Source: a bacterium
GTDB lineage: Bacteria > CLD3 > SB21
DNA: 64,000 nucleotides
Direction of reading: 5' to 3'
Assembly (NCBI GenBank): GCA_013360215.1
Contig: JABWCP010000003.1
Coordinates: 124,001 to 188,000, forward strand
The position numbers were made by a program, and so were the translations under genes. The first letter of the stretch is position 1, and each line of letters opens with the position of its first letter. This document shows, piece after piece, positions 9,860 to 37,304 of this stretch. The notes below the pieces were generated by a model. It searched no databases. It was not told the origin of the DNA and saw nothing but the letters and a program-made list of their open reading frames with translations.

Positions 9860-9872
9860 TTTTTTATCTTCT

Positions 9873-9973
9873 CCCTTCGACTTCTTCCTCGACTTCGCTC
9901 GGAATGAAGTCGGGGTGAAGTTATTTTTTTATTCCAAAAAGCTTCATGGTGAGCGAAGTCGAACCATGAAGCT
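9873..9973. repeat. Two REP-like palindromes upstream of the GIY-YIG gene (one nested, one inverted)
   Basis: CCCTTCGACTTC[TTCCTCGACTTCGCTCGGAATGAAGTC]GGGGTGAAG and AGCTTCATGGT-GAGCGAAGTCGA-ACCATGAAGCT (9940-9973). Confidence 0.85.
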
Positions 9974-12763
9974 CTAGGCAGCTAATGCCTCATTAAGTTC
10001 CTGAATTAGATTATCAATATTATCCCCGAATAATTGCCACGCTTTGGCGAGGCCTCCGCGATCTACGAAGGGCGAGAGATCGAAGTCGTTCTTTTCGATA
10101 TGCACCGACGCGGCGACGTAGTCTTTGATCATACGAAGCCATTCCATCTGCTCCGCATTGAATTTGATCGTGCCTTCCTGTTTTTTGAAGGCCCATTTCT
10201 GGAAATTGCGATTCACCGTTTCGTCGAAGGCCGTGAGCTTTTCGTCGATCCCGATGGCGTGCCTTACGAGCGAAACGAGCGCGATGAGTTCGCTTTTGGG
10301 CTGATCGCCTTTGCTTTTCTCGAGCTGTTCATACGCCTGCCAGAGCCGCGCGGGGGCCAGCTGGGGTTTCCTCATTTTGAGTACCTCGACTAATTCTTTG
10401 ATCATGGCGAAAGTGAGTTCACGCCGCCGGTACGGCTGAGCGTAGAATATCTGCAAGGCTGTGATGGTGTCCCTATTCGTTTCGAGAAATGTTTTGAATT
10501 CCTGCACGAGTTCCGCCGCTTTGCCTTGGGCGTCTTTGTCCCATTCTGCGGCGAGCACGGTATCGAGATTGACATTGTCGATGATCTGGTTGTGCATTTT
10601 GCGGATATTTTCTACGCGTTCGCGGAAGTCCGGGTTTTGAAAAACGTGTGTGGCTTCGGTGACGAGTTCGGCTTTTGCTTTCTCTTCCATCTCCTTCATG
10701 CTGAGCGTAGTCGAAGCATGAAGGTCCTTCGCCTCCCCCTCGACTCCGATCGGGATGAGGCTCATGGCGAGGGCGCGCTCATGAATCACGTCGGGATCGT
10801 AAGACTGAAGAAGGGATTTGACGATGGAATTGAGTTTCTCTCCGCCGCTTGCGCCGGCGAGCTGATCCCGCTCCGCGGGCGTGATCTGTTTATCTAATCG
10901 CGTGAGCCGATTGGCCAGCGAGGTCACGGTATTCTCGTCGGTCGTACCCATGACGACGTGCATCATCAGGTCGCGCAGGGAAATTCCGGGATTGCGCTCC
11001 AGCGGGCGGCTGTCGGTCTTCATCGACTTGCATACGCCGACCGCATCGACGATGACGAAATGGGTCTTATTGGATCGGGCCGACGGCGTGACCTTTCGAA
11101 GATCGTCCTCGGACAGCGTGCGCGTGCCGCGCCCTTTCATCTGCTCGAAGTAACTGCGCGAGCGTACGTCACGCATGAAGAGCAGGCATTCGATAGGCTT
11201 GACGTCCGTTCCGGTGGCGATCATATCCACCGTCACCGCGATGCGCGGGTAAAAGGCCGTGCGGAATTGCTGAAGCACTTCCGAAGGTTTTTCGTCTTTG
11301 ACAGAATAGGTCACCTTTTTGCAGAAGGCATTGCCTTCGGCGAATTCTTCTCTCACGATCTGAATAATATCGTCCGCATGGCTGTCGGACTTGGCGAAGA
11401 TCAGCGTCTTGGGCGCTTCCTCGCGCCCGGGAAATATCTCCGTTCTGAGTTTTTCTTTGAAGGTGCGAATGATCGTACGGATCTGGTCTTTATTGACCAC
11501 ATCGCGATCGAGCTGGGTCGGTTCGTAGATCACCTCTTCGTCCATTTCCTCCCAGGTCTGCCTGCGCGTTTTGCGGTCGCGCGTTTCGATCCATTGTTTC
11601 GCGATCACACCGCCTTTGCGCGTCACTTCCGTATCGATGGTGTAGACATCGTATCCGACATTCACATTATCCGCGACGGCCTGCTCGTGCGTGTATTCGC
11701 TGACCACGTTCTTATTGAAGAACGCATACGTGCGCACGTCCGGCGTGGCGGTGAGGCCTACATAGAACGCGTCGAAATAATCCAGAACCTGTTTCCATAA
11801 ATTATAGATCGAGCGGTGGCATTCGTCCACGACGATCACGTCGAAAGTTTCTATCGGCACGTCGGTATTGTACGCCACGTCTTTGGGGCGTTCGGCCTGT
11901 TTGATCTCATTGAGCGAAGTCTCTTCCACCGATTCGTCCATCTCTTCCCCGCGCAGAATGGAATACATACGCTGGATCGTGCTGATGCAGACGTGGCTGG
12001 CGGAATCGATGTACGACGAGCGCAGGCGCTGGACGTTGTAGAGTTCGGTGAATTTTCTCTGATCGTCATTGGGTTTGAAAGCCTGGAATTCTTGTTCCGC
12101 CTGCTCGCCGAGATTGCGCGTATCCACGAGGAACAATATCCTCCGCGCCCCGGCAAATTTGAGCAGCCGGTAAACCGACGTGATGGCGGTGAAGGTTTTA
12201 CCGGAACCCGTCGCCATTTGCACCAGCGCTTTCGGGCGATTGTCCGCAAATGAGAGTTCCAGATTCTGAATGGCGCGTAACTGGCAATCGCGCAGTCCGT
12301 CGGGATTGAGCGGCGAAATATGCCGGAGTCTTTTTCTAAATGTGTCGGATTGTTTGAGTAATTCTCTGAGCGTTTCCGGTTTGTGAAAAGCGAAAACTTC
12401 GCGCGCGCGGGGTTTGGGATCGCGCAGGTCGGTGAAATGCGTGATCGCGCCGGTGCTTTCGTAGAGGAACGGCAGCACTTTGCCTTCTTTTTTCCATTTG
12501 AGTTGGCCAGTGGCGTAGCGGTAGGACTGTTCCTCCACGGCGCTTAGCAGTTCCCCTTTTTCTTCGGATTTCGCTTCGATCACGCCGACGGGTTCACGAT
12601 CCACAAACAAAATATAATCCGCCGGGCCGCTGTCCGTCGGATATTCACGAATGGCGATACCGGTTCCTGCCGACAAGTCAAGGCGCTTCCTATCTTGCAC
12701 AACCCAGCAGGATCGTACCAACATGCGATCTATGATGTCACGTGCGCGTTGCTCAGGCGTCAT
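9974..12763 (-). CDS. hsdR: Type I R-M restriction subunit (EcoEI-R-type C-terminus)
   Basis: Nuclease motif ADYILF...VIEAK, Walker A MATGSGKT, DECHRS, GLTATP, QMKGRGTR; ATG MTPEQ at 12763 preferred. Confidence 0.96.
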   Translation of the reverse strand: MTPEQRARDIIDRMLVRSCWVVQDRKRLDLSAGTGIAIREYPTDSGPADYILFVDREPVGVIEAKSEEKGELLSAVEEQSYRYATGQLKWKKEGKVLPFLYESTGAITHFTDLRDPKPRAREVFAFHKPETLRELLKQSDTFRKRLRHISPLNPDGLRDCQLRAIQNLELSFADNRPKALVQMATGSGKTFTAITSVYRLLKFAGARRILFLVDTRNLGEQAEQEFQAFKPNDDQRKFTELYNVQRLRSSYIDSASHVCISTIQRMYSILRGEEMDESVEETSLNEIKQAERPKDVAYNTDVPIETFDVIVVDECHRSIYNLWKQVLDYFDAFYVGLTATPDVRTYAFFNKNVVSEYTHEQAVADNVNVGYDVYTIDTEVTRKGGVIAKQWIETRDRKTRRQTWEEMDEEVIYEPTQLDRDVVNKDQIRTIIRTFKEKLRTEIFPGREEAPKTLIFAKSDSHADDIIQIVREEFAEGNAFCKKVTYSVKDEKPSEVLQQFRTAFYPRIAVTVDMIATGTDVKPIECLLFMRDVRSRSYFEQMKGRGTRTLSEDDLRKVTPSARSNKTHFVIVDAVGVCKSMKTDSRPLERNPGISLRDLMMHVVMGTTDENTVTSLANRLTRLDKQITPAERDQLAGASGGEKLNSIVKSLLQSYDPDVIHERALAMSLIPIGVEGEAKDLHASTTLSMKEMEEKAKAELVTEATHVFQNPDFRERVENIRKMHNQIIDNVNLDTVLAAEWDKDAQGKAAELVQEFKTFLETNRDTITALQIFYAQPYRRRELTFAMIKELVEVLKMRKPQLAPARLWQAYEQLEKSKGDQPKSELIALVSLVRHAIGIDEKLTAFDETVNRNFQKWAFKKQEGTIKFNAEQMEWLRMIKDYVAASVHIEKNDFDLSPFVDRGGLAKAWQLFGDNIDNLIQELNEALAA
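10693..10772. repeat. REP-like palindromic element inserted in frame in hsdR
   Basis: CCTTCATGCT-GAGCGTAGTCGA-AGCATGAAGG (10693-10724) plus adjacent TCGACTCCGATC core; translated as ...MSLIPIGVEGEAKDLHASTTLSMK. Confidence 0.8.
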
Positions 12764-23587: not shown

Positions 23588-23632
23588 TTGTCAACTTCGG
23601 GAATCGAAGGCGTTTTTCGCAGGTGTTTTTCG
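23588..23632. repeat. 45-bp direct repeat, copy 2
   Basis: Identical to 21166-21210. Confidence 0.97.
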
Positions 23633-24052
23633 TAATTTATTAGATCGCTTCATTCCGATGTTAAATGTTTTTTGAAGATTCGTTTTTAACTGTGATAAGT
23701 ATGATTGTAAAACCATCAATCTTCCTTCTTGATGCAATCTTGAGCGAATATCAGCCGGTGCTTCTCCTAATCGTTTTTTAAATGCGTCTCTAAGCGTATG
23801 AGGGTTGGCATAACCGCTCTGACGGCATATCTCATACATATTTAAGGATTCATCATGAAGCAATGATAAGGCCCTCTCCAGTCGTTTGTTTTCGATCATA
23901 TCGTACGGGCACATGCTGTATTGCCGCCATGCCAGATCACGCAGATAAGTTGTTGATATGCCCAGATGATCGGCCAATTGCTGAACCGAAAACTCAGGTT
24001 TTGTAAATTCTTTGTTTATAGTATCGTGAATGCCCGTTATTTTCTTTTTCAT
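23591..24052 (-). CDS. Stand-alone AraC-family HTH protein (paralogue of 18092-18499)
   Basis: PEFSVQQLADHLGISTTYLRD, IENKRLERA, ICRQSGY...LRDAFKKRLGEAP. Confidence 0.85.
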   Translation of the reverse strand: MKKKITGIHDTINKEFTKPEFSVQQLADHLGISTTYLRDLAWRQYSMCPYDMIENKRLERALSLLHDESLNMYEICRQSGYANPHTLRDAFKKRLGEAPADIRSRLHQEGRLMVLQSYLSQLKTNLQKTFNIGMKRSNKLRKTPAKNAFDSRS

Positions 24053-24078: not shown

Positions 24079-25311
24079 TTAACTCCTGAATTTTTTGATA
24101 TAATCGTCAAAATTCCAATTCTTGAGTTTGCTTACCACCGCATCAACACCGTTCTTAAACAATTTTTTTTTATCTTCATCGGAGACATCGAAATCCGTCG
24201 TGCCTATTTTTAGCCCGTTGCCGACTTCGTTGCTAATGCGAATGATCCGTTCCTGAGCATGAGGATTCTCTTTGATATACGATTTATCACCGTATTCTGA
24301 AGCGGTTCCGAATACAGCGATACTAAACTTGAAGAGGTTACTAAACGAATTCGGCTTTCTGGGCGTACCCAATTTTTCATCGATCAATAGCCCGAAAGTC
24401 GGGCACTGGGGTTTTTTATAATCACCCGAATTAGAATTACGGCCCGAATCAAATATTGCCAACGGAAAATTGGATACGACGCCTCCATCCACGAAGACAA
24501 TATCCTCATTGTCTTTGAGATTGCTCTGTCCCGTAAACTGAGACAGTAGGAACGGTTCGAAAAAAAAAGGGATAGACATGGATGCACGAACGAGATCACC
24601 GACCAGAATTCGATCGTCATTAATTACATAAGCCGGCAAATCCTTTGGAAAAATACTTTTATCTTCATAGGAAACGTCGGATACGACTAACTGAAAATCG
24701 GTAACAAGGGGAGAATTGTTGATGAGAATTTTTTGATTTTGAAATTGGGTATGCTTCAGCTCGGCTACGGTAAATGGTTTGTCGTTGTTCAATTGCATGA
24801 GGGCATCATTAATGAACTTCCTGAATTCATCGCCGGGGTTTATACCATAACGGTTCCATATATCTAAGGCATTTCTAAGTCCGCTAATAATCCGTTTTAG
24901 TAATCCGGAATTTTTATTTCCAAAATCTTTTACAAGAGTCTGCGCGTCGTTACCCCCATCTACAAAATCGAAAAAATTTTTATTGGCTAGAATATTGAGT
25001 TGATGAAATGATTTTTCCGATCGCGGATCGTTTCCGACAGCAAGAAAGGACGCGTTGATGGCTCCGGCGGACGTTCCGGCAACTTTTCTGAATCTTAACC
25101 CGAGTTGCTCTAAAGCAAAAATCGCACCGACGGTGGCAATTCCTTTGACGCCGCCGCCCTCCATGACCAAATCAATAAATCCTATATCCCTATTATTGGT
25201 ATCTTTGGTAATGAGTTTGGTGATATTCCTGAGTTCAAAATTTTGTTTTAAATTAGATATGACAGAGATGATTTCTTCAGAAACAAATTCTTCAGGCCTT
25301 AAATTTCCCAC
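24079..25311 (-). CDS. Patatin-like phospholipase
   Basis: EGGGVKG, GTSAG nucleophile, RASMSIPFFFEP, DGG. Confidence 0.93.
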   Translation of the reverse strand: MGNLRPEEFVSEEIISVISNLKQNFELRNITKLITKDTNNRDIGFIDLVMEGGGVKGIATVGAIFALEQLGLRFRKVAGTSAGAINASFLAVGNDPRSEKSFHQLNILANKNFFDFVDGGNDAQTLVKDFGNKNSGLLKRIISGLRNALDIWNRYGINPGDEFRKFINDALMQLNNDKPFTVAELKHTQFQNQKILINNSPLVTDFQLVVSDVSYEDKSIFPKDLPAYVINDDRILVGDLVRASMSIPFFFEPFLLSQFTGQSNLKDNEDIVFVDGGVVSNFPLAIFDSGRNSNSGDYKKPQCPTFGLLIDEKLGTPRKPNSFSNLFKFSIAVFGTASEYGDKSYIKENPHAQERIIRISNEVGNGLKIGTTDFDVSDEDKKKLFKNGVDAVVSKLKNWNFDDYIKKFRS

Positions 25312-25820: not shown

Positions 25821-26396
25821 TTAATACCCGGAGCACCATTGGAAATGCATCGGGTTTCTATATTTTTTTTTCCAACTGCCACCCCATTCAAATCCATGCG
25901 ATTGAAATACACGAACGATGTCGGAATTCATATCGCCTCTTGTCCCCGGCGCATTTGTATGCGGATTGAGATCAATAGCTATACCCCAGCAGTGCGTGGA
26001 AAGATGCGTTTGATTGTTTTTATTACGGTACACATAACAGCCACCATACGACTGAATATGCCGATGCAAATTTTTTTCGTATATGACCTGGAATACCTTA
26101 GTAAAAGTTGAAATTAGTTTTTTGTGACAGTATATTTTGCCCACTTTTATATCCGAATAACTTGAGAACGGAATGGTAAATGGAATATCCGCAAATCCCA
26201 TCTGTCCCTCTTCCCAGCTACGTTTGATCGAACCGTCTTGATTGACATAATTAAAAATATCACCGAACGTCAGCATGATCTCATCCAATTCATAAGGCGG
26301 GTTTATCGGCGGCGGCACTGACGGGTAGATATCATCCAGACGAAGCGGAATCCTAAACAGCGTTTTTTCTTGTTTATCCGTTATCATTGAGTTCAT
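25821..26396 (-). CDS. M15-family (M15C-like) peptidoglycan metallopeptidase
   Basis: GGCYVYR, LSTHCWGIAIDLN, WGGSW, PMHFQ. Confidence 0.88.
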   Translation of the reverse strand: MNSMITDKQEKTLFRIPLRLDDIYPSVPPPINPPYELDEIMLTFGDIFNYVNQDGSIKRSWEEGQMGFADIPFTIPFSSYSDIKVGKIYCHKKLISTFTKVFQVIYEKNLHRHIQSYGGCYVYRNKNNQTHLSTHCWGIAIDLNPHTNAPGTRGDMNSDIVRVFQSHGFEWGGSWKKKYRNPMHFQWCSGY

Positions 26397-26560
26397 TGCC
26401 TTGGTTCCGTATGATCATATTGTAATAAGACAGCTTTTTTTAAAAAAAAACATAAACTGATTTTCAAATCTGCGATTTGTTCTCAAAACCATTAAAATCA
26501 AATCTTTAAAAGACATTCTATTCTAAAGACTCACGTTTTTTAATCATCGGAACGCCATTC

Positions 26561-27175
26561 ATGTTGTTTTCAGGCACAAGATTTAAAGATTTATCGGACT
26601 CCGAATTGATCGAAGCCTATCGAAAATCTATGAACGATCGGTATCTTAACGAACTATTTAGTCGTTATGCGTATCTCGTTTTATTTGTTTGTAATAAATA
26701 TTTCAGTAATGCCGAGGACTCCAGAGACGCTACGATGGAAGTTTTGGAGAAACTGGCGCAGGGGATCGTCAAGTCTGATGTGAAGAATTTTAAGTCGTGG
26801 TTGTATGTGGTTACAAAAAATTTCTGCCTCAATAAACTTCAAAAATCTAAAGGCTTAGACTTTCAGTTTGTCCCCATTGATGGTGATGAAACAAATTATT
26901 TTATGTATTTTTCTGAGATAGACAGTCTTATTGATGAAGACGATGATCATAGTTTGAAAATGAAGCAGGCTTTAAAAGAAGCCATAGAGGCCTTGGATCC
27001 TCATCAGAGGGAATGTTTGGTGCTCTTCTACTATGAGAAAAAAAGCTATAATGAAATCATGGAAATTAAAAATTGGGATAAAGACCAGGTCCGTAGTTAT
27101 TTGCAGAACGGACGAAGAAACATTAAGATCTATCTAAAGAAAAGCGGGCTGTATGTCGAAAATATCGAAAACTGA
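26561..27175 (+). CDS. ECF RNA polymerase sigma factor
   Basis: Region 2 FKSWLYVVTKNFCLN; region 4 QRECLVLFYYEKKSYNEI...VRSYLQNGRRNIK. Confidence 0.95.
   Translation: MLFSGTRFKDLSDSELIEAYRKSMNDRYLNELFSRYAYLVLFVCNKYFSNAEDSRDATMEVLEKLAQGIVKSDVKNFKSWLYVVTKNFCLNKLQKSKGLDFQFVPIDGDETNYFMYFSEIDSLIDEDDDHSLKMKQALKEAIEALDPHQRECLVLFYYEKKSYNEIMEIKNWDKDQVRSYLQNGRRNIKIYLKKSGLYVENIEN
26900..26933 (+). promoter_or_regulatory. Putative ECF promoter inside the sigma gene (would drive anti-sigma and CHAT-C)
   Basis: TTTATGTATTTT-N13-GTCTTATTG; same bipartite motif and spacing as 28981-29014 on the minus strand. Confidence 0.55.
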
Positions 27176-27944
27176 ATCAGAATCCGGGGGCTTAAAATTG
27201 ACACGTAGTCACCAGAATTGCCTGACGGAAGAAATGATCGTCAACTATCTGTTTCGCTCCATATCGGACGAAGAACGGCATCGCATCGAAGAACATATTA
27301 CCGACTGCGATCTGTGCTATGACGCCGTAAGCGGTGCGCGCCGATTGGGCTCCGAAATGGAATTGACGAAGCAGACCATGATACTGCGATCGGATATAGA
27401 AGCACGTTATGGCCGGACCCATAGATCCAATAAACCCGCTAAGTTCAAATATTATGCCGCGGCGGCTTTACTATTGATTTCATCCAGCAGCATCGGTTAT
27501 TGGCTCACACGCCATTCCCACGAAACGATTGCCGACGCGTTTATCACACCATACTCCAATACCATACCTTTGACCCGTGGCGCCGACGCGCAAAGTTTAC
27601 TGGAAGAGGCCATGGCCGCTTATGAAGCAGAAACGTACGACGCCAGCGCTCAGAAACTTGAGGATTTCCTCAAAACCAATCCGGATCACAGCGTGGCCCA
27701 CTTTTATTGCGGCATAAGCCTGCTCTTGGAAGGTCAATTTGAAGAATCCGACTTGCACTTTCAAAAATCGGAGAAATCGGAAGACCGGCGCATCGCAGAA
27801 GCAGCGCGTTGGTACCGGGCTTTGGCCTATGTGAAAATGGAAAAAACAGATGAGGCAATGAACCTGCTAAAAGAAGTCGCCCAACGTAACGGATTTTACG
27901 CTCCGTCGGCGGCTTCCCTCATGGAACGCCTCCAAAAAGAATGA
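27153..27944 (+). CDS. Anti-sigma factor: zf-HC2, TM, periplasmic TPR
   Basis: IEEHITDCDLC, TM YYAAAALLLISSSSIGYWL, PLTRG, TPR AHFYCGISLL and ARWYRALAYVK. Confidence 0.9.
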   Translation: MSKISKTESESGGLKLTRSHQNCLTEEMIVNYLFRSISDEERHRIEEHITDCDLCYDAVSGARRLGSEMELTKQTMILRSDIEARYGRTHRSNKPAKFKYYAAAALLLISSSSIGYWLTRHSHETIADAFITPYSNTIPLTRGADAQSLLEEAMAAYEAETYDASAQKLEDFLKTNPDHSVAHFYCGISLLLEGQFEESDLHFQKSEKSEDRRIAEAARWYRALAYVKMEKTDEAMNLLKEVAQRNGFYAPSAASLMERLQKE

Positions 27945-28726
27945 GAATTTTAAGAGTATATATTCTCGCATCCGCCGTTTTATTGGGAACCCTCTTTGCT
28001 CAGGAGGAAGCTGAAGAAAACCTCCGGGATACACTGAGGTTACGCGATCTGCCATGGGCGGAAAAAGAATTACAAAGCATTGCTTCCGTCGTAAAAAGTG
28101 AACTCTACCTGCGCGGCGATGCGACCGAGGCCGCTTTCAAAAAAAATGCCGGACGCTTTGGCATTATCCATCTCGCCCAACACGTAATCCTTGATGATAA
28201 AGAACCTCTCTATTCCAAATTTATCTTTTCTGATTCCCCCGGATCGGGGGAAGACGGGTATCTCCACCTTTACGAATTATACAATCTTCGGCTACGCGCC
28301 AATATGGTCGTACTGAGTGCATGCCAAACAGGCATCGGAAAAAATATCAAAGGCGAAGGTATGATGAGCCTCGCGCGAGGTTTTACCTACAGCGGCTGCC
28401 CCAGTGTCGTGATGAGCTTATGGTCTATTGATGATAAAGCGACTTCCGTAATCATCACTGATTTTTATCGTAAGCTCGCGCAAGGCAAACCCAAAGATGT
28501 CGCCCTGCGCGATGCTAAACTAAATATGATCCAAAGCGGTGACCCCGTTTTATCCAATCCTTATTATTGGTCCGGGCTGGTCGTCATAGGAAGTACGGAA
28601 TCACTAGAAATTCCTCCTCCCGAAAATTTTATATCGTACCGGATTTACGCCACCGCGGTGATCGTTTCGATCCTTGTGCTTTTGATTCTCATCGGTATAA
28701 AAAGAATGAAATCCGTTTCGCATTAA
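27941..28726 (+). CDS. C-terminal (catalytic) half of a CHAT caspase-like protease, with its own signal peptide and C-terminal TM
   Basis: LPWAEKEL, ATEAAFK, IIHLAQH (His), EDGYL, VVLSACQTG (Cys), GEGMMSLARGF, SLWSIDD, PYYWSG. Confidence 0.92.
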   Translation: MRILRVYILASAVLLGTLFAQEEAEENLRDTLRLRDLPWAEKELQSIASVVKSELYLRGDATEAAFKKNAGRFGIIHLAQHVILDDKEPLYSKFIFSDSPGSGEDGYLHLYELYNLRLRANMVVLSACQTGIGKNIKGEGMMSLARGFTYSGCPSVVMSLWSIDDKATSVIITDFYRKLAQGKPKDVALRDAKLNMIQSGDPVLSNPYYWSGLVVIGSTESLEIPPPENFISYRIYATAVIVSILVLLILIGIKRMKSVSH

Positions 28727-28938
28727 TTTCCGCCACCGCCGCCGGGAAGCGGATCGATCGGCGTATCTTGCGGTAAAATTTCATCGGTATCACCATCGTA
28801 TGTTTTTTTGTCGCCGGTCGTTGATTCCGAATTCTTTCCTGTACTGCTGCTGACCACTCCTTCAGGCCCACCGCAAGCCGATACAGCCAACGTTAATAAA
28901 ATAACGTACAGCACGATTGCCAATTTAGTTTTTTTCAT
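28723..28938 (-). CDS. Small lipoprotein (71 aa) with low-complexity mature part
   Basis: RBS TAAGGAG; lipobox AVSA-C; ends DTPIDPLPGGGGGN; shares TTAA stops with the convergent CHAT-C gene. Confidence 0.8.
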   Translation of the reverse strand: MKKTKLAIVLYVILLTLAVSACGGPEGVVSSSTGKNSESTTGDKKTYDGDTDEILPQDTPIDPLPGGGGGN

Positions 28939-28980
28939 GACTCTCTCCTTAGGGGTTATTAGTTATGTACCAAATATAAC

Positions 28981-29014
28981 CAATAAGACAATCATTCCTG
29001 AGAAAGTGCATAAA
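28981..29014 (-). promoter_or_regulatory. Putative ECF promoter of the small lipoprotein gene
   Basis: TTTATGCACTTT-N13-GTCTTATTG, 42 nt upstream of the ATG. Confidence 0.6.
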
Positions 29015-29056
29015 CTTTTACGGGCGGGGCAATCTCGGGCAAGCAAAAAAAACGTG

Positions 29057-31516
29057 TCACTTGAACGTGGTGGACGTGAAGCCGGCTAAATCATTGAGTC
29101 CATCTCTTGAGACCGAAGACGGCTGGAATAATAATGAAGCGGAATACGCATAACTAATGTGGTATTTTTTGATGAGATAGTTGAGTGTAGCATAGTCTTC
29201 TTGATTATCGGGTAACCGAGGCAGTAACGCTTCAAACGGAATACCCGAGAGAATACCGTCCGGCACGACAATCAGTTTTACGGCGCTTGTTTTTTCGAAT
29301 GGTTTAAATACAACATTATACAAATAATGCGCTGAAGTCGAATACAATGCCATGTTCATCGTTTGAATCCCCGTAGTCAACGCATGCACGACTCCAATCA
29401 GCGATGAATCAACCGGCGCCGCGGCCCATGCGCATCCCGATCGGGTTACGCAAAACGCATACAGATGCCGATTCCCTATAAAGTACTCCAATAAGACCGT
29501 CGAGTCCGGTATCAATTTTTGAACGGCTTCAAGTGGCATGATAAGCGGTTTATATTTGAGAGAATATAATTGCGGAAAAGTTTGCTCCACATGCTTGAGA
29601 TAGGCTTCATATTCCGAGGTCAATTGGAATAACTGGTCCTGAATATATCTGAATTTGGGGCTGCCATAACCGCCCGAGTTTTGTTCAGAAAAAAGTTTTT
29701 TATTATACACACCGATCCGGTTGCGTAATTGTTCTTCGTATTCCAGCAATGAATCGGGAATGCCGACAAATCGTTTGGCGTGCTGACGACTCACAACTTC
29801 GGACAAGACAGCCGCTTTGCTTGTTTCAGAATAAATAAAGGCCTCGTTGAGGTATTTTTTTTCAGAAGTTATCTTATAAAGATCCGTTGCTGTTTGAATG
29901 GCTTTTTCGAAAAGCCCTATAGAACGCTGACCTATTAAGATTTTAGAATCCTCGGATACATATTCCCGCCGCGTTCGATCTAGCCACTCTACGGCCATGG
30001 CATACGACGCAAACGACGCCTTGAGGTGTTGAAGGTTCTGCGTTTTATACTCATAATACTCCTGCAAAATATCGCCTTTCAATTCTAACGCTAACATGAG
30101 TTTGACCGCATCGCGCGTTCGGTACATAAATCCCGATGCCGAATCGGCGATCAAAAGCGCGTCGATCGCTTTTTGAATGTTTCTCAAAGCCGCAGGATAG
30201 TCTTTTACAATCCGGTGCGCACCGGCCATATTGGAATAACAAAGGGAAACTTCTAAATGTTTGCTCCCATAATATTCTAAATTAATAGACAATGCCTGTT
30301 CGTAATAGGTCAGACTTTTTTTGACATCACCCATTTTCAAATACGTCATACCGATATGACTATATTCATGCGCTCTGCGAAAACCTTTGGCACCGGGTCT
30401 GTTATTCCAAATAGTAAGCGCGTTATTAAAGTAAAAAAGCGCGCTATCATACATGTTTTTTTCCAGAAATAATTCGCCGATTTCGTCGGACACTCTCGCG
30501 ATCACCGGATGCTTCAGCCCGTAATTTTTTTTCCAATTATTTAAAGCATAACGATAGTAGGACAATGCCGTATCCATTTGACCGACTTCTTTGAAGGCAA
30601 AACCTAAATTATAGTAATTGTTCCCAACCGTCGGGTGCCCCAGGCCATATTTCCTTTCGTTGACCGATAACGCCTGATTGTACAATTTGAACGCCTGGTT
30701 CATCTCACCTTTTCGCAAATAGGCGGTTCCCATCAACGTATAATTTTCCGATAACGTGACATGGTCGCTTCCAAAAAGCGTTTTTCTTATTTGCAATGAT
30801 CGGTTTATATGCTCCAACGCTTTTTCGTGATTTCCCTGCGCTTGGTAAACGCTGGCCATATTATTATTTAATACGGCGACGGGGCTGCTGTTTTCCCCGA
30901 TGGTTCTCATAAAAACGCCGAGCGCCTGATCATAATATTGCAACGCCAACGTAAAATAACCGCTGTTATAGTTGACAAGCCCCAGGTTATTGTAACTCCA
31001 TCCGATATCAATATGATCGCCGGGAAGTGTTTTTTTTCGTATCCATAAGGCTTTGTTGAAATTGTTTTTGGCTTTTTCGTCATCGCCTTGATCCATGTAC
31101 CACAGACCCATTTTATTGATTGCCATCGCCGTTGATACATCGGTTTCCCCCAAATACCGAATACTCCGATCTATGTTGGCCGTGAGAATGGAGAAAGCCG
31201 TATCGTATCGGCCAAGGCGGCGAAAGTTATCGCCGATGTAATTCATACCATCAATATAAAATCGCCACACGCTGTCGCGTTGATAGATACCGGTCGCACG
31301 CTCAAAAAAAATCAGGGAACTATCGTACCTGCTTTTTTCTGTCAAAGAAACGCCCTCTTCGAACCACAATCTTGCTTGTGTGGTATCCGATAATAAGGGT
31401 TCCTTTGATCGTAAAAAATTTTGCTCTCGCCGCATATCAACATAAAAATAACCCGCCAAAACGGCTACGCCTGCTGCCAATACCAAAAGAAGTTTACGCG
31501 AAATGGTAATTTTCAT
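29057..31516 (-). CDS. Membrane-anchored TPR protein ending in the N-terminal half of a CHAT domain
   Basis: N-terminal anchor; many kinesin-light-chain-type TPRs (HIDIGWSYNNLG); then EAFIYSETSKA, LLEYFIG, LIVVPDGILSGIPFEAL, YLIKKYHISYAYSASLL; stops before the catalytic His/Cys. Confidence 0.92.
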   Translation of the reverse strand: MKITISRKLLLVLAAGVAVLAGYFYVDMRREQNFLRSKEPLLSDTTQARLWFEEGVSLTEKSRYDSSLIFFERATGIYQRDSVWRFYIDGMNYIGDNFRRLGRYDTAFSILTANIDRSIRYLGETDVSTAMAINKMGLWYMDQGDDEKAKNNFNKALWIRKKTLPGDHIDIGWSYNNLGLVNYNSGYFTLALQYYDQALGVFMRTIGENSSPVAVLNNNMASVYQAQGNHEKALEHINRSLQIRKTLFGSDHVTLSENYTLMGTAYLRKGEMNQAFKLYNQALSVNERKYGLGHPTVGNNYYNLGFAFKEVGQMDTALSYYRYALNNWKKNYGLKHPVIARVSDEIGELFLEKNMYDSALFYFNNALTIWNNRPGAKGFRRAHEYSHIGMTYLKMGDVKKSLTYYEQALSINLEYYGSKHLEVSLCYSNMAGAHRIVKDYPAALRNIQKAIDALLIADSASGFMYRTRDAVKLMLALELKGDILQEYYEYKTQNLQHLKASFASYAMAVEWLDRTRREYVSEDSKILIGQRSIGLFEKAIQTATDLYKITSEKKYLNEAFIYSETSKAAVLSEVVSRQHAKRFVGIPDSLLEYEEQLRNRIGVYNKKLFSEQNSGGYGSPKFRYIQDQLFQLTSEYEAYLKHVEQTFPQLYSLKYKPLIMPLEAVQKLIPDSTVLLEYFIGNRHLYAFCVTRSGCAWAAAPVDSSLIGVVHALTTGIQTMNMALYSTSAHYLYNVVFKPFEKTSAVKLIVVPDGILSGIPFEALLPRLPDNQEDYATLNYLIKKYHISYAYSASLLFQPSSVSRDGLNDLAGFTSTTFK

Positions 31517-31678
31517 ATATCCGATGGATTGGATAAAATAGCGGTTAAACCTGTGGAAAAAATATAGGTGTGATTCTATATATAGAAAACGGGTTAAGCA
31601 ATATTTCTTTTCGTATGAAAAGAACCGTTTGAATGCTTTTAGGGCCTCCGCAGCGATTATACAGATAGTATTTACAGT

Positions 31679-34600
31679 TTACACTGTCGTTTCTCTTTTA
31701 AACCAGCGACCGACGGTTTTGGTAATGCCCTCTACCCAAGAATACGTCGTCGGAACGATCACGAGCGTAAGAAAAGTAGAAACCGTCAGACCGAAAATGA
31801 CCGCCACACCGAGCGGACGCCAGAAATCGCTGCTCTCCGCGCCGATGATGAAATGCCATTCGCGCCAATCAAAATCAATACCTGTTGCCAAAGGTAAAAT
31901 ACCGAGTATCGTTGTGGCCGCCGTGAGCAAAACAGGTCGGAGCCGTGTTCGACCGGCTTCGGCAAGTGCCTCGTCCAGCGTCATACCGCTGCCGCGTAAA
32001 TGTTTGGTAAAATCCAGCAGCACAATGGCGTTTTTTACCACGATACCGGCAAGCGAAATCACACCGATCCCCGTCATGATCACGCCGAACGGCGTCCCGG
32101 TCAGTAACAAACCAAGAAACACACCGATCAATGAAAGCGGCACCGATACCATGATCACCATCGGAACCTTCACGCTGTTAAACTCGGACACAAGCACCAA
32201 AAAAATCAGAAGAATCGTTATCACCAGCGTTTTTGCTAAAAACGCCATCGCTTTATCCATTTCTTTATTTTCACCGGTGTATTCGATCCGATACCCGTTG
32301 GGCAATTTAAATGTTTTCAATTTTTCACGCACGTCATGAAGCACATCATTAGCTAAGCGATTTTGTACATCGCCGGAAATCGTGATCACCCGTCGCAGAT
32401 CTTTGCGGCGTACGTTGGATAAACCGTTGCTGTGCACGACTGTAGCGATCGAAGCCAGCGGCACGGACATGAGCACGCCGCGGTTATTCATAAACGTGAT
32501 ATTGAGATTTTCAATTTCCGAGGGCGACTGGCGCTGATCTTCACGCAAACGAACGGTGATTTTGTATTCGTCCTCGCCGACACGAAATTTGGAGGCCTCC
32601 GTACCGTTGATCGCTGTACGCACGGCCATCGCGATTTGCCCGGTGCTCATCTCCAGCAACGCCGCCTTTTCACGATCAACGATCACCTGGATCTCCGGTT
32701 TACCGGCGTCATAATCATCTTTCAAATCCACCAGCCCGGGAATGGAACGAATTTCAGACTGTATTTTTTCAGATAACTGCGCCAGCATACGAAAATCATC
32801 ACCGGATAAATCAATGCTCACCGGCGCACCCACCGGCGGTCCGTTTTCCTGACCTTTCACTTTGATCTCCGCGCCGGCGATTCCTTTGGCATGCTCACGC
32901 ATGGACTCCATCGTCTCAAACGTGTTTTTTTCACGTTTCATTTTTTCATAAAAATTAATGGAAATCTGCGATTTATTGGGCGTGCCCTGTCCTCCAAAAT
33001 CAAACGGATCTTCTGACGTACCGACATTGGCAACCACAAACTCCATATCCTTCACACCTTCGACATGCTTCAATCGCTCTTCGACCATCGCTGTCACCGC
33101 ATTGGTCATTTCCAAGGGCGTGCCCGACGGCATAGCAATATTGACTGAGACCTGATTGGGTTGCGTTTCGGGAAAAAATTCGACGCCTTTGTTAAACATC
33201 ACAAATAGAAACGTCATTGCAAACAGCAATACCCCGGACAGCACTACGGTCATGGTTTTATGGCGCAGTGTCAGTTTCAGTGTCTTAACATATTTTTCCT
33301 GCGCTCTCGGAAAAAAATGCGTATCCACATAGTGGTAGAGACGACTAAAAGGATTGTAGTGCGTCCACCAATGCTTTTGCTGCATCGAAGACTTGAGCGC
33401 GGTCATTTCTTTATGATAATCTATGAACTGCGCACCCTGCGTCGGGCTGATGACATACGCGGTGAAAATGGAAGCCCCCATCATGATGATGAGCGTCAAA
33501 GGCAGATAATACATAAAGTCACCGATTACACCCGGCCAAAAAAGCATCGGAAGAAAACCGGAGATCGTCGTAAACGTCGAAGTAGCCAGGGGAATCGACA
33601 CTTCCCGGGTCGCATCCTTGGCGGCCTGAATCGGATTTTTACCGTATTCATGCTGATGACGATATATATTTTCGATGACGACGATGGCATCATCCACCAG
33701 AATACCCAAGACCAACACCAGTGCAAACAAAACAACAAAATTGAGCGTCACGCCCATAAAGCTGAGAATAACAAATCCGATGAGCATCGAAATCGGTATT
33801 GACGTGCTGATCAGAAATGAATTTTTCATCCCAAAAAACATGAAGAGCACCAGCACGACCAGCACCATCCCCGTCACTACGGAGTTTTCTAATTCCTTCA
33901 CGGAACGTTTGATATCTATCGAAGCATCATTGGTGATACGTACATGCAGGCCGGGCGGGAAATTGGCTTTTTCATCGGACAATATCGTTTTCACTTCATC
34001 GGCTATCTGGATAAGATTTTCACCTGCGCGTTTTTTGACGCTTAACGTAAGCACAGGTGATCCGTTCAGACGACTATAGGTTGATCGGTCTTCAAACAAA
34101 TATTCGACAGTAGCCACATCGCGCACATAGATCGGGGAACCGTGCCTCATTTTTATAATCAGATCTTCGATCGGTTTGGGCGCAGCAAATTCGCCCGGAA
34201 TGCGCACGCTGTACTCCGTCGTTCCGTTATTGATCGCCCCGCCGGGCGTCGTAAGATTTTCACTGCGAATGGCATTGATCACATCGTCAAAACTAACACT
34301 GTACCCCCTGAGGCGATTGATATCGCAGTTGACTTGCACCTCCGGTTCCAGACTGCCCGTAATGTCCGAACTCAGCACTCCCGGCACCGCTTCGATTTTG
34401 TCTTGCAAATCCTCGGCGATTCGCTTCATACGCGCCAATCCGAGATCGCCGCCGAGCGTGACAAACATGATCGGAAATTCGCTGAAATTGATTTCGCTGA
34501 TGATCGGTTCCAGAATATCCGACGGCAGCTTGGGTTTGGTCTGATTGACTTTGTCGCGCACACGACGCAAGGCTTCGTCTATGTCTATCCCGGTTTCAAA

Positions 34601-34882
34601 TTCGACACGTATCGTTGACAGCCCTTCTTTGGAAGACGACGTGATTTCTTTGACGTCCTTCAGCGATTTGAGTTCTTTCTCCATCGGCTGGGTGACGAGT
34701 CCTTCCATATCCGCCGGGCTTACGCCGACGTAAGGAACGGAAACGATCACAAGAGGAATGGATATATCCGGTGCGGCTTCCCGCGGAAGACTGCTGTATG
34801 ACATCGTACCCAGAATCACGATGATCATCATAAGGATATACACCGTGACTTTATTATCGACTGCAAAATCCCAAATTCTCAT
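31679..34882 (-). CDS. RND efflux permease (AcrB/AcrD/AcrF family)
   Basis: 1067 aa; GILVDDAIVVIEN, GIVVKNAIVL, RLRPVLLTA. Confidence 0.96.
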   Translation of the reverse strand: MRIWDFAVDNKVTVYILMMIIVILGTMSYSSLPREAAPDISIPLVIVSVPYVGVSPADMEGLVTQPMEKELKSLKDVKEITSSSKEGLSTIRVEFETGIDIDEALRRVRDKVNQTKPKLPSDILEPIISEINFSEFPIMFVTLGGDLGLARMKRIAEDLQDKIEAVPGVLSSDITGSLEPEVQVNCDINRLRGYSVSFDDVINAIRSENLTTPGGAINNGTTEYSVRIPGEFAAPKPIEDLIIKMRHGSPIYVRDVATVEYLFEDRSTYSRLNGSPVLTLSVKKRAGENLIQIADEVKTILSDEKANFPPGLHVRITNDASIDIKRSVKELENSVVTGMVLVVLVLFMFFGMKNSFLISTSIPISMLIGFVILSFMGVTLNFVVLFALVLVLGILVDDAIVVIENIYRHQHEYGKNPIQAAKDATREVSIPLATSTFTTISGFLPMLFWPGVIGDFMYYLPLTLIIMMGASIFTAYVISPTQGAQFIDYHKEMTALKSSMQQKHWWTHYNPFSRLYHYVDTHFFPRAQEKYVKTLKLTLRHKTMTVVLSGVLLFAMTFLFVMFNKGVEFFPETQPNQVSVNIAMPSGTPLEMTNAVTAMVEERLKHVEGVKDMEFVVANVGTSEDPFDFGGQGTPNKSQISINFYEKMKREKNTFETMESMREHAKGIAGAEIKVKGQENGPPVGAPVSIDLSGDDFRMLAQLSEKIQSEIRSIPGLVDLKDDYDAGKPEIQVIVDREKAALLEMSTGQIAMAVRTAINGTEASKFRVGEDEYKITVRLREDQRQSPSEIENLNITFMNNRGVLMSVPLASIATVVHSNGLSNVRRKDLRRVITISGDVQNRLANDVLHDVREKLKTFKLPNGYRIEYTGENKEMDKAMAFLAKTLVITILLIFLVLVSEFNSVKVPMVIMVSVPLSLIGVFLGLLLTGTPFGVIMTGIGVISLAGIVVKNAIVLLDFTKHLRGSGMTLDEALAEAGRTRLRPVLLTAATTILGILPLATGIDFDWREWHFIIGAESSDFWRPLGVAVIFGLTVSTFLTLVIVPTTYSWVEGITKTVGRWFKRETTV

Positions 34883-34909
34883 GGGAAAATTCCTTGAAGC
34901 TAAGTTTCG

Positions 34910-35959
34910 TTATGGCTGAATGCGCACGGCCTGTTGCGGTGTCAGATTTTGATAGCCGACCGTAATCACTTCATCACCTTCCTGCAAACCGGAGAGGATA
35001 TGAACAAAATCGCGGCTCATACCGCCGATTCGCACCGCACGCTCTTCGGCAATACCGTCTTTGTGGACATACACGACGAGCCGGCCGGCATCCACCTGTT
35101 GTACGAAGTCACGCTGAATGAGAATGGCCTTTTCGATCGCGGCCAATTTCATCGCTATGGAAGCGATCATCTGCGGTTTGAGTTTTCCGCCGGGATTCGT
35201 GAGAAAAAGTTCGACCGGAATCGTCCGGTTATCCGGATTGACGGCCGCGCCGACAAATCCGATTTTGCCGCGAAACGTTTCCCCCAGAAACGCATCCACC
35301 GTAAATTCCACGACGAGATTGGGTTGTACGTCACGCGCATACCGCTCAGGTACACCGACCATGACTTTGAGATTGGTCATGTCAATGATCTGGGCAATCG
35401 GCATGCCCGGCGCCGCCATTTCTCCCGCATCGGCAAATTGTTCATTGAGCACACCATTAACCGGGCTGGTAACGGTAGTTTTGTCGAGACGTTGTTTTGC
35501 CAGATCAGCTTGTGCTTTGGCCGCGTCGCGCTGAAATTCGAGGTTCTTAAGTTGCAGTTCAGATATCGCTTGCTCTGCAAACGCGCTTTTCTGTTTTTGA
35601 TAATTGACCTCGGCCATCTGGTAAGCCGCTTGCGCTGCATCGTAGGCGGAACGGTAAGCGGCATCGTCAATCTGTGCGATCGCCTGCCCGCGCTGAACCG
35701 TAGCGCCCTTGGTGGCAAGCCACCGCAGGATACGTCCGCCTTCTTCCGCCGGTACGATAATATTATCTACGGATTCTACAGTTCCCGTAAGGCGAATCGT
35801 CTCGGCAAAGGGTTTGGCGATAATTTTTTCTGTCTTTATATAGACGATCGCTTCCGGTTCTTTTTTTGTGTCGCCCGGACCGGCATTGGATGAACCGCAG
35901 CCCGTCACCCATAGGTAACCCGGTAAAAGCAGAAGGTTTAATCTTTGATGTATCTTCAT
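34910..35959 (-). CDS. RND periplasmic adaptor (MFP) lipoprotein
   Basis: Lipobox VTGC; VTSPVNG; SGLQEGDEVITVG. Confidence 0.93.
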   Translation of the reverse strand: MKIHQRLNLLLLPGYLWVTGCGSSNAGPGDTKKEPEAIVYIKTEKIIAKPFAETIRLTGTVESVDNIIVPAEEGGRILRWLATKGATVQRGQAIAQIDDAAYRSAYDAAQAAYQMAEVNYQKQKSAFAEQAISELQLKNLEFQRDAAKAQADLAKQRLDKTTVTSPVNGVLNEQFADAGEMAAPGMPIAQIIDMTNLKVMVGVPERYARDVQPNLVVEFTVDAFLGETFRGKIGFVGAAVNPDNRTIPVELFLTNPGGKLKPQMIASIAMKLAAIEKAILIQRDFVQQVDAGRLVVYVHKDGIAEERAVRIGGMSRDFVHILSGLQEGDEVITVGYQNLTPQQAVRIQP

Positions 35960-35981
35960 AACAGCTCCGTCGCTGGTAAAA

Positions 35982-37304
35982 TTAATTTTGCGGTTGATGA
36001 TAACTGATCATTTCCTCAAGATCCACGCAGGTCACAAGATAGTCGTAAATGGCGTGAATACGGTTTAGGCGTGCCTGCAATAAAGCCACATCAGCATCGT
36101 TGACTTCGAGTTGTGTACCCGATCCGGTGGCATAACGCGTAGTAGCGATCTTGTAGCTTTTTTCAGCCAGCTCCACCGTACGGTTTTGGCTGGCCATACG
36201 TTTACGCGCTTCATCCAAACGCAGACGGATGCTTTGCATTTGACTGCGAATGTTTTCGCGCGTGTAGCGCAGTTGCTGTTCGGCTTTGCGTTCATCCGCG
36301 CGGGATTGGGCTAATCGCGCCGTTGTCTGAAAACCATTGAACAGATTGAGGCTCAGCGTGAGGCCGACTTGCGATGTACTGATAAAATCTTTTCCTCCAA
36401 AGTCCATCGTATTTTTCTGCGCCTGCCATTGATATGTACCAAACGCCGCAAGGGTGGGCATGTATTCGGCCAGCCTTATAGATGAAACAGCGGAATTAAG
36501 ATCTTGTTGCAATCGCAGTGCTTCCAATCCGGCATTTTGTGTCACCGCACGTTGTTCGTCCAGCCAACTGCTATCAAGCGGTACAGCCGTCAGTTCACCA
36601 CGGATGTGCAGGGGATCCGCGGCATCCATCCCGAGCTGAACTTTCAGAGCGTTGGTGACAACCAGCGCTTGTTGTTCCGCTGAAATCACCGACGGGCGCA
36701 GGTTTTCTACTTGCACTTCGGCACGGATCATATCGTAGTCGGATACAATACCTTGTTTATTGAGAATGCGGACGTTGTTAAAATTATTTTCGGCATTGGT
36801 CAGGCTGGCTTTGGTGGTTTCATACACCTGCCTCGCCAACAGTACCTGATAAAAAACTTTTTTAACCGAGGCCACCATACGATTGTATTCCGAACGATAT
36901 AATGCCCGCGACGTCCGCTGATATACTTTGGCCGTGCCGACGCCCGTAAATACGGCAAAATTAAACAACGCCTGCGTTGCGGTAAATCCGGTTTCGATAG
37001 AGTGGTTGGAACCAATCTCGATCGGTGTCACTTTGCCACTGGCCGGATTTTCAAAATCCGGCAGAAAAAAAACCGGTTTTTTGAGAGCACGGGTATAGCG
37101 TGTGTCCAGAGTTATGCTGGGCATGGCATACCCGTATGCTTCGCGCACCTGCTGATCCGCTTTGCGCATATCCCAGCGCGCAACGGCAAGTAATGCGTTG
37201 TTTTTTTCGGCGATACGAATCGCTTCGTCCAGCGTCAACAGCGAATCCTGCGCCGCCAGCCATCCTCCGGTACATATACATAATAACAACCAACATCGTC
37301 GCAT
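35982..37304 (-). CDS. TolC-family outer-membrane efflux protein
   Basis: LTLDEAIRIA, LNLFNGF, RYATGSGTQLEVNDA. Confidence 0.93.
   Translation of the reverse strand: MRRCWLLLCICTGGWLAAQDSLLTLDEAIRIAEKNNALLAVARWDMRKADQQVREAYGYAMPSITLDTRYTRALKKPVFFLPDFENPASGKVTPIEIGSNHSIETGFTATQALFNFAVFTGVGTAKVYQRTSRALYRSEYNRMVASVKKVFYQVLLARQVYETTKASLTNAENNFNNVRILNKQGIVSDYDMIRAEVQVENLRPSVISAEQQALVVTNALKVQLGMDAADPLHIRGELTAVPLDSSWLDEQRAVTQNAGLEALRLQQDLNSAVSSIRLAEYMPTLAAFGTYQWQAQKNTMDFGGKDFISTSQVGLTLSLNLFNGFQTTARLAQSRADERKAEQQLRYTRENIRSQMQSIRLRLDEARKRMASQNRTVELAEKSYKIATTRYATGSGTQLEVNDADVALLQARLNRIHAIYDYLVTCVDLEEMISYHQPQN

Follow-up and report, generated by a model that had tools for sequence, protein, structure and literature searches.

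The literature that ties a CHAT domain to an anti-sigma factor and a sigma factor of the extracytoplasmic function (ECF) kind comprises, in its accessible parts, DdvA/DdvS, Craspase and a type III-B protease cascade. DdvA of Myxococcus xanthus is an anti-sigma factor with a periplasmic tetratricopeptide repeat (TPR)-CHAT region, and the accessible portion of the report proposes that its CHAT domain acts as a site-1 protease, which clips its own linker ahead of RseP (PMC11506125). For periplasmic TPR-CHAT control of an ECF sigma factor DdvA is the one studied case, in which the protease step is, as far as that portion goes, only proposed. Here, a related locus is described from a bacterium of the GTDB lineage CLD3; SB21. 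The window, meaning the whole stretch of DNA that was analysed, comprises 64,000 nucleotides (nt) of contig JABWCP010000003.1 (assembly GCA_013360215.1, positions 124,001 to 188,000, forward strand). At 26,561 to 31,516 it encodes an ECF sigma factor, an anti-sigma factor, the catalytic part of a CHAT domain (CHAT-C, or C-half), a small lipoprotein and a TPR protein that carries the beginning of a CHAT domain (TPR-CHAT-N, or N-half) (Table 1). The TPR-CHAT-N gene and then the lipoprotein gene, both on the minus strand, converge on the plus-strand sigma, anti-sigma and CHAT-C genes. Public annotation names the two halves only 'CHAT domain-containing protein' and 'tetratricopeptide repeat protein'.

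The locus and DdvA/DdvS (PMC11506125, in its accessible part; PDB 8rot, 8rw5) both combine an ECF sigma factor, a single-pass zinc-binding anti-sigma factor and a periplasmic TPR-CHAT region with a His-Cys dyad. As in DdvA/DdvS-type systems, the sigma gene adjoins that of the anti-sigma factor, the predicted helix of which is weakly hydrophobic here; in those systems TPR-CHAT is fused to the periplasmic end of the anti-sigma factor, whereas in the window the TPR-CHAT parts are separate genes. DdvA is accordingly one chain of 991 amino acids (aa), as described in the same source, whereas the window has three membrane proteins (anti-sigma factor, TPR-CHAT-N and CHAT-C). The sequence relation is remote, and among solved chains the C-half profile matches DdvA alone (8rot_B, E 0.0034). 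Furthermore, DdvS is described there as controlling a CBASS-CRISPR island, whereas in the window a promoter-like motif precedes the gene of an M15 peptidase, that of the small lipoprotein and the anti-sigma/CHAT-C unit. What is new here is the split CHAT domain and its permutation, the linkage of sigma factor, anti-sigma factor and TPR-CHAT being already known from DdvA/DdvS. Craspase (type III-E; Csx29 TPR-CHAT with Csx30/Csx31/CASP-sigma) resembles the locus in that a TPR-CHAT protease is tied to sigma release; it is, according to the accessible part of its description, cytoplasmic, RNA-guided and single-chain (PMC10028731), whereas the window proteins are exported. The genome, of which the marker genes indicate 100% completeness, gave no RAMP-family (PF03787) match. 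The comparison with Csx29/Csx30 drawn in the original prediction, a note made from the DNA letters alone, did not hold up, since export of the proteins and lack of a RAMP-family gene in the genome exclude a Craspase link.

A CHAT domain usually lies whole and in N-to-C order on one polypeptide; in the window it is divided between two convergent genes. On the Pfam CHAT model (PF12770, 289 positions, cut-off 24 bits), N-half residues 728-802 match positions 3-72 (32.7 bits) and C-half residues 27-218 match positions 93-289 (168.8 bits, E 2.3e-49), a complementary coverage with zero overlap. Neither half has a frameshift or an internal stop. When the pieces are aligned with 17 one-piece relatives, the cut falls where the alignment varies over some 20-35 columns, after the strand l.GFAPxF and before the helix L..LPw.E.E; the N-half stops directly after the strand, and the mature C-half starts inside the variable stretch that precedes the helix. 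The original prediction had claimed that the minus-strand TPR gene holds the first part of a CHAT domain only, that the plus-strand gene holds the catalytic His and Cys, and that the halves are complementary and unbroken, all of which agrees with these matches, the His and Cys lying within positions 93-289. The five open reading frames (ORFs) that it listed and every motif that it quoted (VLLEYF, LIVVPDGILSGIPFEAL, YLIKKYHISYAYSASLL, ..LAGFTSTTFK at the end of the N-half, LRDLPWAEKEL, HLAQH and SACQTG) were also recovered, and the translational coupling that it suggested was located as an ATGA overlap of the anti-sigma and CHAT-C genes at 27941-27944.

Judged by sequence, the C-half is the caspase-fold cysteine protease part of a CHAT domain, with a conserved His-Cys dyad and a predicted activity. 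The candidate catalytic residues are His81 and Cys128; all of the 16 aligned sequences share H77, H81 and C128, and H81 aligns with the histidine of the DdvA ATHG motif. Among the 11 orthologous C-halves that cover these sites the His is kept in all and the Cys in 10, locus L032 having GSCRSG at the Cys site (the letters L, G, P and X stand for fetched loci, genomes, database proteins and sequencing runs, respectively). The signal peptide and C-terminal transmembrane segment that had been claimed for this half are visible in its hydropathy as a signal-like stretch at 3-21 (ending ..LFA, followed by QEE) and a helix at 235-253, which is followed by KRMK. Both are kept in the orthologous C-halves with complete ends, the copy of G006 excepted. 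Of the 12 CHAT-C orthologues read, 8 have a Gln that follows the signal-like stretch immediately (AQE, GQD and the like), which recalls the signal-peptidase 'Q-rule' of Bacteroidetes. The N-half begins with its single hydrophobic helix (9-27 by hydropathy), continues with a TPR array and the first third of the CHAT domain, and ends in ..LAGFTSTTFK. Seven of nine other orthologous N-halves end at the same ..GF.P..F(K/R) point; L031 has ..GIAPFSK and L032 lacks it.

The arrangement recurs among relatives, which were represented by 14 other genomes of the same family, three of a sister family and two of a third family (20 genomes in the phylum as a whole). A short-frame CHAT-C orthologue (237-336 aa, 39-76% identity) is present in 10 of the 14 family genomes, and an eleventh is cut by a contig end; none was detected in the three sister-family or the two third-family genomes. 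Of 11 fetched loci, 9 have a TPR-CHAT-N gene converging on CHAT-C and two are truncated by contig ends, and directly upstream of CHAT-C lie an anti-sigma gene in 10 and a sigma gene in 9 of these loci. The layout spans at least seven genera, with CHAT-C identities as low as 37-39%. The ratio of nonsynonymous to synonymous substitution rates (dN/dS) was taken from L027/L028, the sole unsaturated pair (pairs with the window have dS above 2 or undefined), and is 0.095 for the sigma factor, 0.167 for the anti-sigma factor, 0.118 for CHAT-C, 0.245 for the lipoprotein and 0.148 for the N-half. Both halves thus have low ratios, so relaxed selection, which would have spoken against the original prediction of a natural split, is not seen. 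In these two loci the anti-sigma and CHAT-C genes are separated by gaps of 770 nt (L027, 3306-4074) and 300 nt (L028, 5573-5869) without a convincing ORF, in place of the 4-nt overlap of the window.

The window stretch is also present in activated-sludge runs of several studies. A 3463-nt DNA contig (X3 record 9) covers 26300-29683 and a 1231-nt DNA contig (X6 record 18) covers 27807-29037, so that both junctions are spanned independently, and no strand-changing joints were reported in the contigs of four runs; the misassembly that the original prediction had listed as a danger is not supported. Identical 261-aa and 819-aa proteins occur on at least 10 contigs (NCBI, JGI, ENA, Logan). Taken together, these sequence comparisons indicate that the CHAT split is natural, old and under purifying selection. 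An invertible switch was considered as well and rejected: the flanks of 27.9-29.1 kb have no convincing inverted repeats (best 23 nt at 74%), and the four runs gave no strand-changing joints. The same genome has four CHAT paralogues, all of them one-piece, and no sigma or anti-sigma gene lies within the 1.5 kb flanks examined around them.

The same order of parts is found in single chains. With the C-half as query, 102441 matches at E up to 0.001 were obtained among 1.84 billion representative proteins, and the best 150 of these were looked at. Most of them are one-piece proteins of about 930-1190 aa with a C-terminal match, a terminal helix and a basic tail (110 rows so classified). Among the same best 150, the match lies at the N-terminus of a long protein in P0007, P0008, P0011, P0016, P0027, P0071 and P0089 and, separately, in P0053, and P0002, P0005 and P0006 are complete stand-alone CHAT-C proteins of 264-304 aa. 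P0007, P0008, P0016, P0027 and P0071 (1031-1165 aa), annotated only as 'CHAT domain-containing protein', are single chains with a swapped order: a signal peptide is followed by CHAT-C, which has the His and Cys, then by two hydrophobic helices with a short basic loop between them, and finally by the TPR array and CHAT-N. They end in GFAPxxF(K/E/Y/N/Q), which is the point where the window N-half ends. The one-piece order is TPR, CHAT-N, CHAT-C and anchor, and the termini of the permuted form fall in the same loop. The same two segments therefore occur in both orders with termini at one point, and on this alignment evidence the long single-chain forms are circular permutations of the one-piece protein, the window having the same order in two genes. 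P0008 (NCBI MBN1781762.1) is the gene in L038 that lies directly after a sigma gene and a zf-HC2 anti-sigma gene on the same strand. By the gene-fusion ('Rosetta stone') argument, a permuted chain in a sigma/anti-sigma operon suggests that the two window proteins act as one unit. The permuted chains thus share with the window their part order, termini, signal peptide and, in L038, the context of a sigma factor and a zinc-finger anti-sigma factor; they are joined by a two-helix membrane hairpin, whereas the window has separate convergent genes with the lipoprotein gene between them.

Type III metacaspases and engineered caspases are swapped at the p20/p10 boundary, after the catalytic Cys, whereas the window termini precede the His, beside the first core strand, and the parts also occur as two genes. 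Natural type III metacaspases with p10 before p20 and engineered permuted caspases are known from the accessible parts of their descriptions (PMC3734836, PMC7760212), and they resemble the window in that the segment order is swapped within the caspase fold. A search of the accessible literature found nothing that joins 'circular permutation' with 'CHAT domain', and the main text of the ECF classification paper PMC7826278 mentions neither CHAT nor 'caspase' nor 'TPR'. The locus presents a natural caspase-fold domain that is cut beside its first core strand, exported in two pieces and predicted to be rebuilt outside the cytoplasm.

The rebuilding was modelled by co-folding N-half residues 440-819 with C-half residues 22-232, each with a nine-row orthologue alignment. 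The score was 0.78 (runs 0.80, 0.78 and 0.77) against 0.50 for the best of three controls, and the assembly of the halves that the original prediction had postulated is thus predicted here as well. In the benchmark 58 of 80 solved complexes attained this mark, as did 2 of 110 mismatched pairs, which is a rough guide only, with custom alignments used here. The runs share at least 75% of their contacts, and the partner predicted local distance difference test score (pLDDT) is at least 74. N-half residues 810-813 (LAGF, the last strand) contact C-half residues 75-78 (IIHL, the strand leading to the catalytic His), and N-half residues 786-791 (HISYAY) contact C-half residues 214-217 (VVIG, the last strand). 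These modelled contacts support a sensor half that completes the catalytic-half sheet from both sides, and the two products probably join into one enzyme.

The anti-sigma factor consists of a zinc-binding domain, an Ala-rich hydrophobic stretch, the juxtamembrane motif PYSNTIPLTR (133-142) and a TPR domain of 120 aa that reaches to its end. The zinc-binding pattern C23, H48-x3-C52-x2-C55 is invariant in 12 of 12 homologues, and so are P133, Y134, P139 and R142, which lie just outside the helix. The sole hydrophobic stretch (101-119) reaches 1.24 on a 19-residue Kyte-Doolittle window; because this is under the usual threshold of 1.6, the assignment of a membrane helix rests on reading and conservation. 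The bulky parts of the anti-sigma factor and of both CHAT halves are all predicted from sequence to be periplasmic, each half on its own membrane anchor. The lipoprotein matched no Pfam family. Its homologues were found in six loci, between the halves, and M1, K2, L17, C22, G23, E26, S31, D58 and P60 are invariant. In L038, the permuted gene was not seen to be followed by a gene for a small lipoprotein.

The window has three copies of a two-part motif, TATG(C/T)A-N15-17-(C)GTCTTA, where 0.04 would be expected, and none of 100 shuffles reached three. A looser form has five matches in the whole genome, three of them in this locus; a reversed control pattern has 10. The same three positions are occupied in L025-L028 and two of them in L029: motif 1 is found in L025-L028, and motif 2 (at the same codon position) and motif 3 in L025-L029. 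Synonymous positions under motif 2 are fixed, with Leu as CTT in 6 of 6 and Arg as CGT in 5 of 5. No motif was found upstream of the N-half gene. We infer that the motif is the promoter of this particular sigma factor, and the M15 peptidase and lipoprotein genes are likely members of its regulon. Neither the motif nor the permuted order of the parts figures in the original prediction. The only other full-form site of the genome, TATGCA..ACGTCTTA at G000:C45:36496-36524 (+), lies about 2 kb from a Peptidase_M50 match (C45:38626-39225).

Transcripts of the locus were found in RNA-library contigs of one sample (X16, X17), which cover 27185-28962 and thus the anti-sigma, CHAT-C and lipoprotein genes; one of them bridges the anti-sigma/CHAT-C junction. 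They do not cover 26300-27184 or 29132-31600, and being from a single sample they are silent on expression of the sigma factor and the N-half; nor can the contig ends confirm the transcript starts, which are predicted to lie near 26418 (-), 26938 (+) and 28976 (-). The separate transcriptional control proposed for the catalytic half agrees with its transcription together with the anti-sigma gene, the sensor half being a separate transcription unit.

On balance, and with moderate confidence, the locus is read as a functional two-subunit periplasmic CHAT protease, which together with the ECF sigma and anti-sigma factors would form an envelope signalling switch. The two subunits would be exported separately, the catalytic one with a signal peptide (about residues 1-20) that is cleaved, and meet on the outer face of the inner membrane, where the HISYAY and LAGF strands of the sensor half would insert into the catalytic half's beta-sheet. 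The enzyme would be activated by a signal that the fast-evolving TPR half perceives, and the assembled protease would then clip the periplasmic or juxtamembrane part of the anti-sigma factor, with the invariant PYSNTIPLxR motif as a candidate site. Cleavage of the anti-sigma factor is suggested by the conserved gene neighbourhood and by analogy with DdvA/DdvS. As proposed for that system, a site-2 protease would next free the sigma factor, and a Peptidase_M50 (RseP-type) gene is present in the genome. The freed sigma factor would read the three local promoters (TATGCA-N16-CGTCTTA) and induce the M15 cell-wall peptidase, the small acidic lipoprotein and, as feedback, the anti-sigma factor with the catalytic half. 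Since the sensor, the catalytic part and the anti-sigma factor are three separate proteins, each can be supplied or mutated alone, which makes the cleavage hypothesis testable by reconstitution.

Several observations weigh against the switch. DdvA catalytic-dyad mutants behaved like the wild type under the conditions tested, and cleavage of an anti-sigma factor by CHAT is hypothetical there too, according to the accessible part of the report (PMC11506125). G003 and G004 (100% complete) and G014 (94% complete, 9% contamination) have long-frame paralogues only and no short-frame orthologue; in L031 neither a sigma nor an anti-sigma gene was found in the 2.9 kb upstream of CHAT-C, and in the copy of G006 a TAG lies within the match, and the frame that was read lacks the C-terminal helix. 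The co-fold pass may be partly owed to what the model knows of caspase-fold structures made of one chain, although by sequence DdvA alone is recognisable among solved chains; an unrelated control came to 0.50. The permuted P0008 was modelled with AlphaFold2 (nine-row alignment; mean pLDDT 71, predicted template modelling score 0.50), but this model was not used as support, as residues 962-981 and 983-1031 (the CHAT-N end) are below 50 and CHAT-N has no confident placement. With regard to the motif, it was not found in the more distant loci L031-L035, its orientation was chosen by geometry (CGTCTTA downstream as an ECF-like -10), and motif 2 overlaps conserved sigma codons (F-M ... R/S-L-I/M). 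Finally, a sigma factor that drives the catalytic half could make the protease the output of the switch, not its input.

The last point leads to a possible alternative, which is held to be unlikely and yet deserves attention, namely that the halves form a protease that serves as the effector of the sigma/anti-sigma pair. The sigma factor would turn on the catalytic half, and the enzyme would process other envelope proteins, for instance the lipoprotein, or cell-wall enzymes. The sigma-type motif upstream of both the anti-sigma/CHAT-C genes and the lipoprotein gene is consistent with this, as is the retention of the lipoprotein gene between the halves in six loci. However, the sensor half is without such a motif, and the wide recurrence of fused and unfused anti-sigma/TPR-CHAT pairs, as it appears in the loci examined here and in PMC11506125, fits a regulated proteolysis of the anti-sigma factor better than an output that arose by chance. 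The protease as trigger and the protease as output are not mutually exclusive.

It is also conceivable, with a low probability, that the halves no longer cooperate, the C-half acting alone or being inactive and the N-half being a TPR scaffold with a vestigial CHAT stub. The N-half diverges much faster than its partner (42% identity between the window and L025, against 69% for the C-half), and its CHAT match is weak at 32.7 bits. A decaying stub would, however, hardly be expected to end at the same residues in most orthologues and in the permuted chains, nor to have eight residues (P752, D753, G754, P760, F761, E762, Y789 and S792) invariant in 9 of 9 sequences and a dN/dS of 0.148, and the predicted contacts put its last strand in the middle of the C-half sheet, beside the His strand. 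The halves also differ in their nearest relatives: the C-half, sigma factor and anti-sigma factor of the window are nearest to L025 (69, 65 and 57% identity), and the N-half is nearer to L027/L028 (51/49%) than to L025/L026 (42/41%), mainly in residues 215-520 and 610-783. Either the sensor half could have been exchanged between lineages, or the rates could be uneven.

That a one-piece gene was recently inverted or broken, or that the layout is due to misassembly or to a phase-variable segment, is extremely improbable: a convergent one-piece gene with its 3' part inverted would have precisely this geometry, and convergent layouts of sigma, anti-sigma and one-piece CHAT genes exist (L047, L049, L039), but the spread over genera, the purifying selection, the conserved signal peptide and anchors, the joint-free junctions and the poor flanking repeats all speak against it.

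Returning to the two-subunit switch, a more speculative extension, to which only a small probability is given, is that assembly itself is the regulated step, so that the locus would work as a periplasmic split-protease logic gate. In this view the catalytic half would be made only with the anti-sigma factor and be further induced by the sigma factor from a promoter within the sigma gene, and the fast-diverging sensor half would be made alone. The sigma-induced lipoprotein would then be a ligand, substrate or inhibitor that closes the loop, and the hairpin chains and the two-gene form would be successive stages of a permutation by fission and fusion, both preserved in living lineages.

The 80 best loci were taken with one genome per species, and their titles are all of Bacteroidota type or plain 'bacterium'; one is split (L036, the same record as G008), one is permuted (L038), the others being one-piece or truncated at contig ends. 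The one-piece Bacteroidota TPR-CHAT proteins (L037-L115) share with the window the build of TPR, CHAT and C-terminal anchor and the kinds of neighbours, and their CHAT-C is 43-52% identical to that of the window; their CHAT domain is continuous and, unlike in the window, their anti-sigma-like neighbours mostly lack HxxxCxxC. Across the 80 loci, 40 ORFs of 150-330 aa resemble the window anti-sigma factor, and each has a hydrophobic stretch near residues 70-130 and ends in a TPR tail; HxxxCxxC is missing in 38 of them, and the two that have it are from the split L036 and the permuted L038. Three loci were inspected closely, L039, L047 and L049, and in each the anti-sigma-like ORF has a sigma-like gene beside it, converging on the CHAT gene. 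No published description was found of one-piece TPR-CHAT genes beside sigma and anti-sigma-like TPR proteins in Bacteroidota. The GTDB phylum of the window was represented by 20 species genomes; the public record of the nearest relative is titled 'uncultured Bacteroidota bacterium', and the nearest one-piece relatives all have Bacteroidota titles.

A CHAT-C tree was built from 84 of 162 classified rows, for which every second of the 110 one-piece rows was kept (55) and 21 'other/fragment' rows, the partial L035 and P0059 were left out. The family of the window groups together (Shimodaira-Hasegawa-like approximate likelihood ratio test, SH-aLRT, 88-94, not starred), and the permuted rows fall into two groups, one of them mixed with the stand-alone P0002, P0005 and P0006. 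Since 43 of 80 inner branches, the deep ones included, are unresolved, the order of origin events cannot be read from this tree. In an approximately unbiased (AU) test, a single clade of all split, all permuted and four short rows (25 versus 59) was not rejected (p 0.607), which only leaves a single origin of the new termini open, because the group was named after the tree had been seen.

Two routes fit the data, and an old inversion is a possible origin of the two-gene form. On the first route, a convergent one-piece gene would have had its 3' part inverted, and the resulting two-gene form would later have been fused into the permuted chain. In the second, a tandem duplication of the one-piece gene would have been followed by fusion via two anchors, trimming to the permuted chain and a later split with inversion. 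P0053 (1163 aa) has CHAT-C at its N-terminus (78-281) and a complete CHAT domain at its C-terminus (823-1123), with a terminal anchor, and sits on a very long branch; to judge from its domain order it resembles a tandem duplication that is only partial, such as a permutation by duplication would pass through. One-piece TPR-CHAT genes also occur as tandem pairs on one strand, next to a single anti-sigma-like gene, in L039 (1749-7699), L078 and L108 (about 4360-11100) and L111 (5195-11109). The one-piece, two-gene and permuted single-chain forms are all extant, which makes this family useful for the study of circular permutation and for split-protease design.

Table 1. Coordinates of the features of the locus (window positions).
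Feature	Position	Strand	Remarks
Small conserved ORF, 83 aa	25373..25624	-	3' of the M15 peptidase gene; tblastn 53-59% identity in L025, L026, L028, L036
Peptidase_M15_4 (VanY-like) gene	25821..26396	-	Pfam PF13539, E 4.9e-15; divergent from sigma
ECF-like promoter motif 1 (TATGTT..N..CTGTCTTA)	26426..26454	-	Faces the M15 gene, ends 30 nt upstream
ECF sigma factor, 204 aa	26561..27175	+	Sigma70_r2 and Sigma70_r4_2 above cut-offs; TIGR02937 E 2.5e-20
ECF-like promoter motif 2	26902..26930	+	Inside the sigma ORF, 223 nt upstream of the anti-sigma start; least certain site
Anti-sigma factor, 263 aa	27153..27944	+	zf-HC2 E 7e-4 (20.1 bits, under the 22.2 cut-off) and TPR matches
CHAT-C catalytic half, 261 aa	27941..28726	+	Pfam CHAT model positions 93-289
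Small acidic lipoprotein, 71 aa	28723..28938	-	Lipobox ..SAC22GG, acidic D-x-P motif, Gly-rich tail
ECF-like promoter motif 3 (TATGCA..N..TTGTCTTA)	28984..29012	-	Faces the lipoprotein gene, ends 46 nt upstream
TPR-CHAT-N sensor/scaffold half, 819 aa	29057..31516	-	TPR_12 E 1e-62; CHAT model positions 3-72

Next to the locus, on the minus strand, are genes for a patatin-like phospholipase (24079-25311) and for a small helix-turn-helix protein of the AraC type (23591-24052), and a three-gene resistance-nodulation-division (RND) efflux operon (outer-membrane factor, adaptor and pump; 31679-37304, minus strand) lies directly upstream of the TPR-CHAT-N gene. None of these genes has a conserved linkage to the orthologous loci in relatives. 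The M15 peptidase gene and the 83-aa ORF, the sole Pfam match of which is a weak YjzC (E 0.007, under the cut-off), are both transcribed divergently from the sigma gene, and the peptidase gene is a conserved neighbour in L025-L028 and L036.

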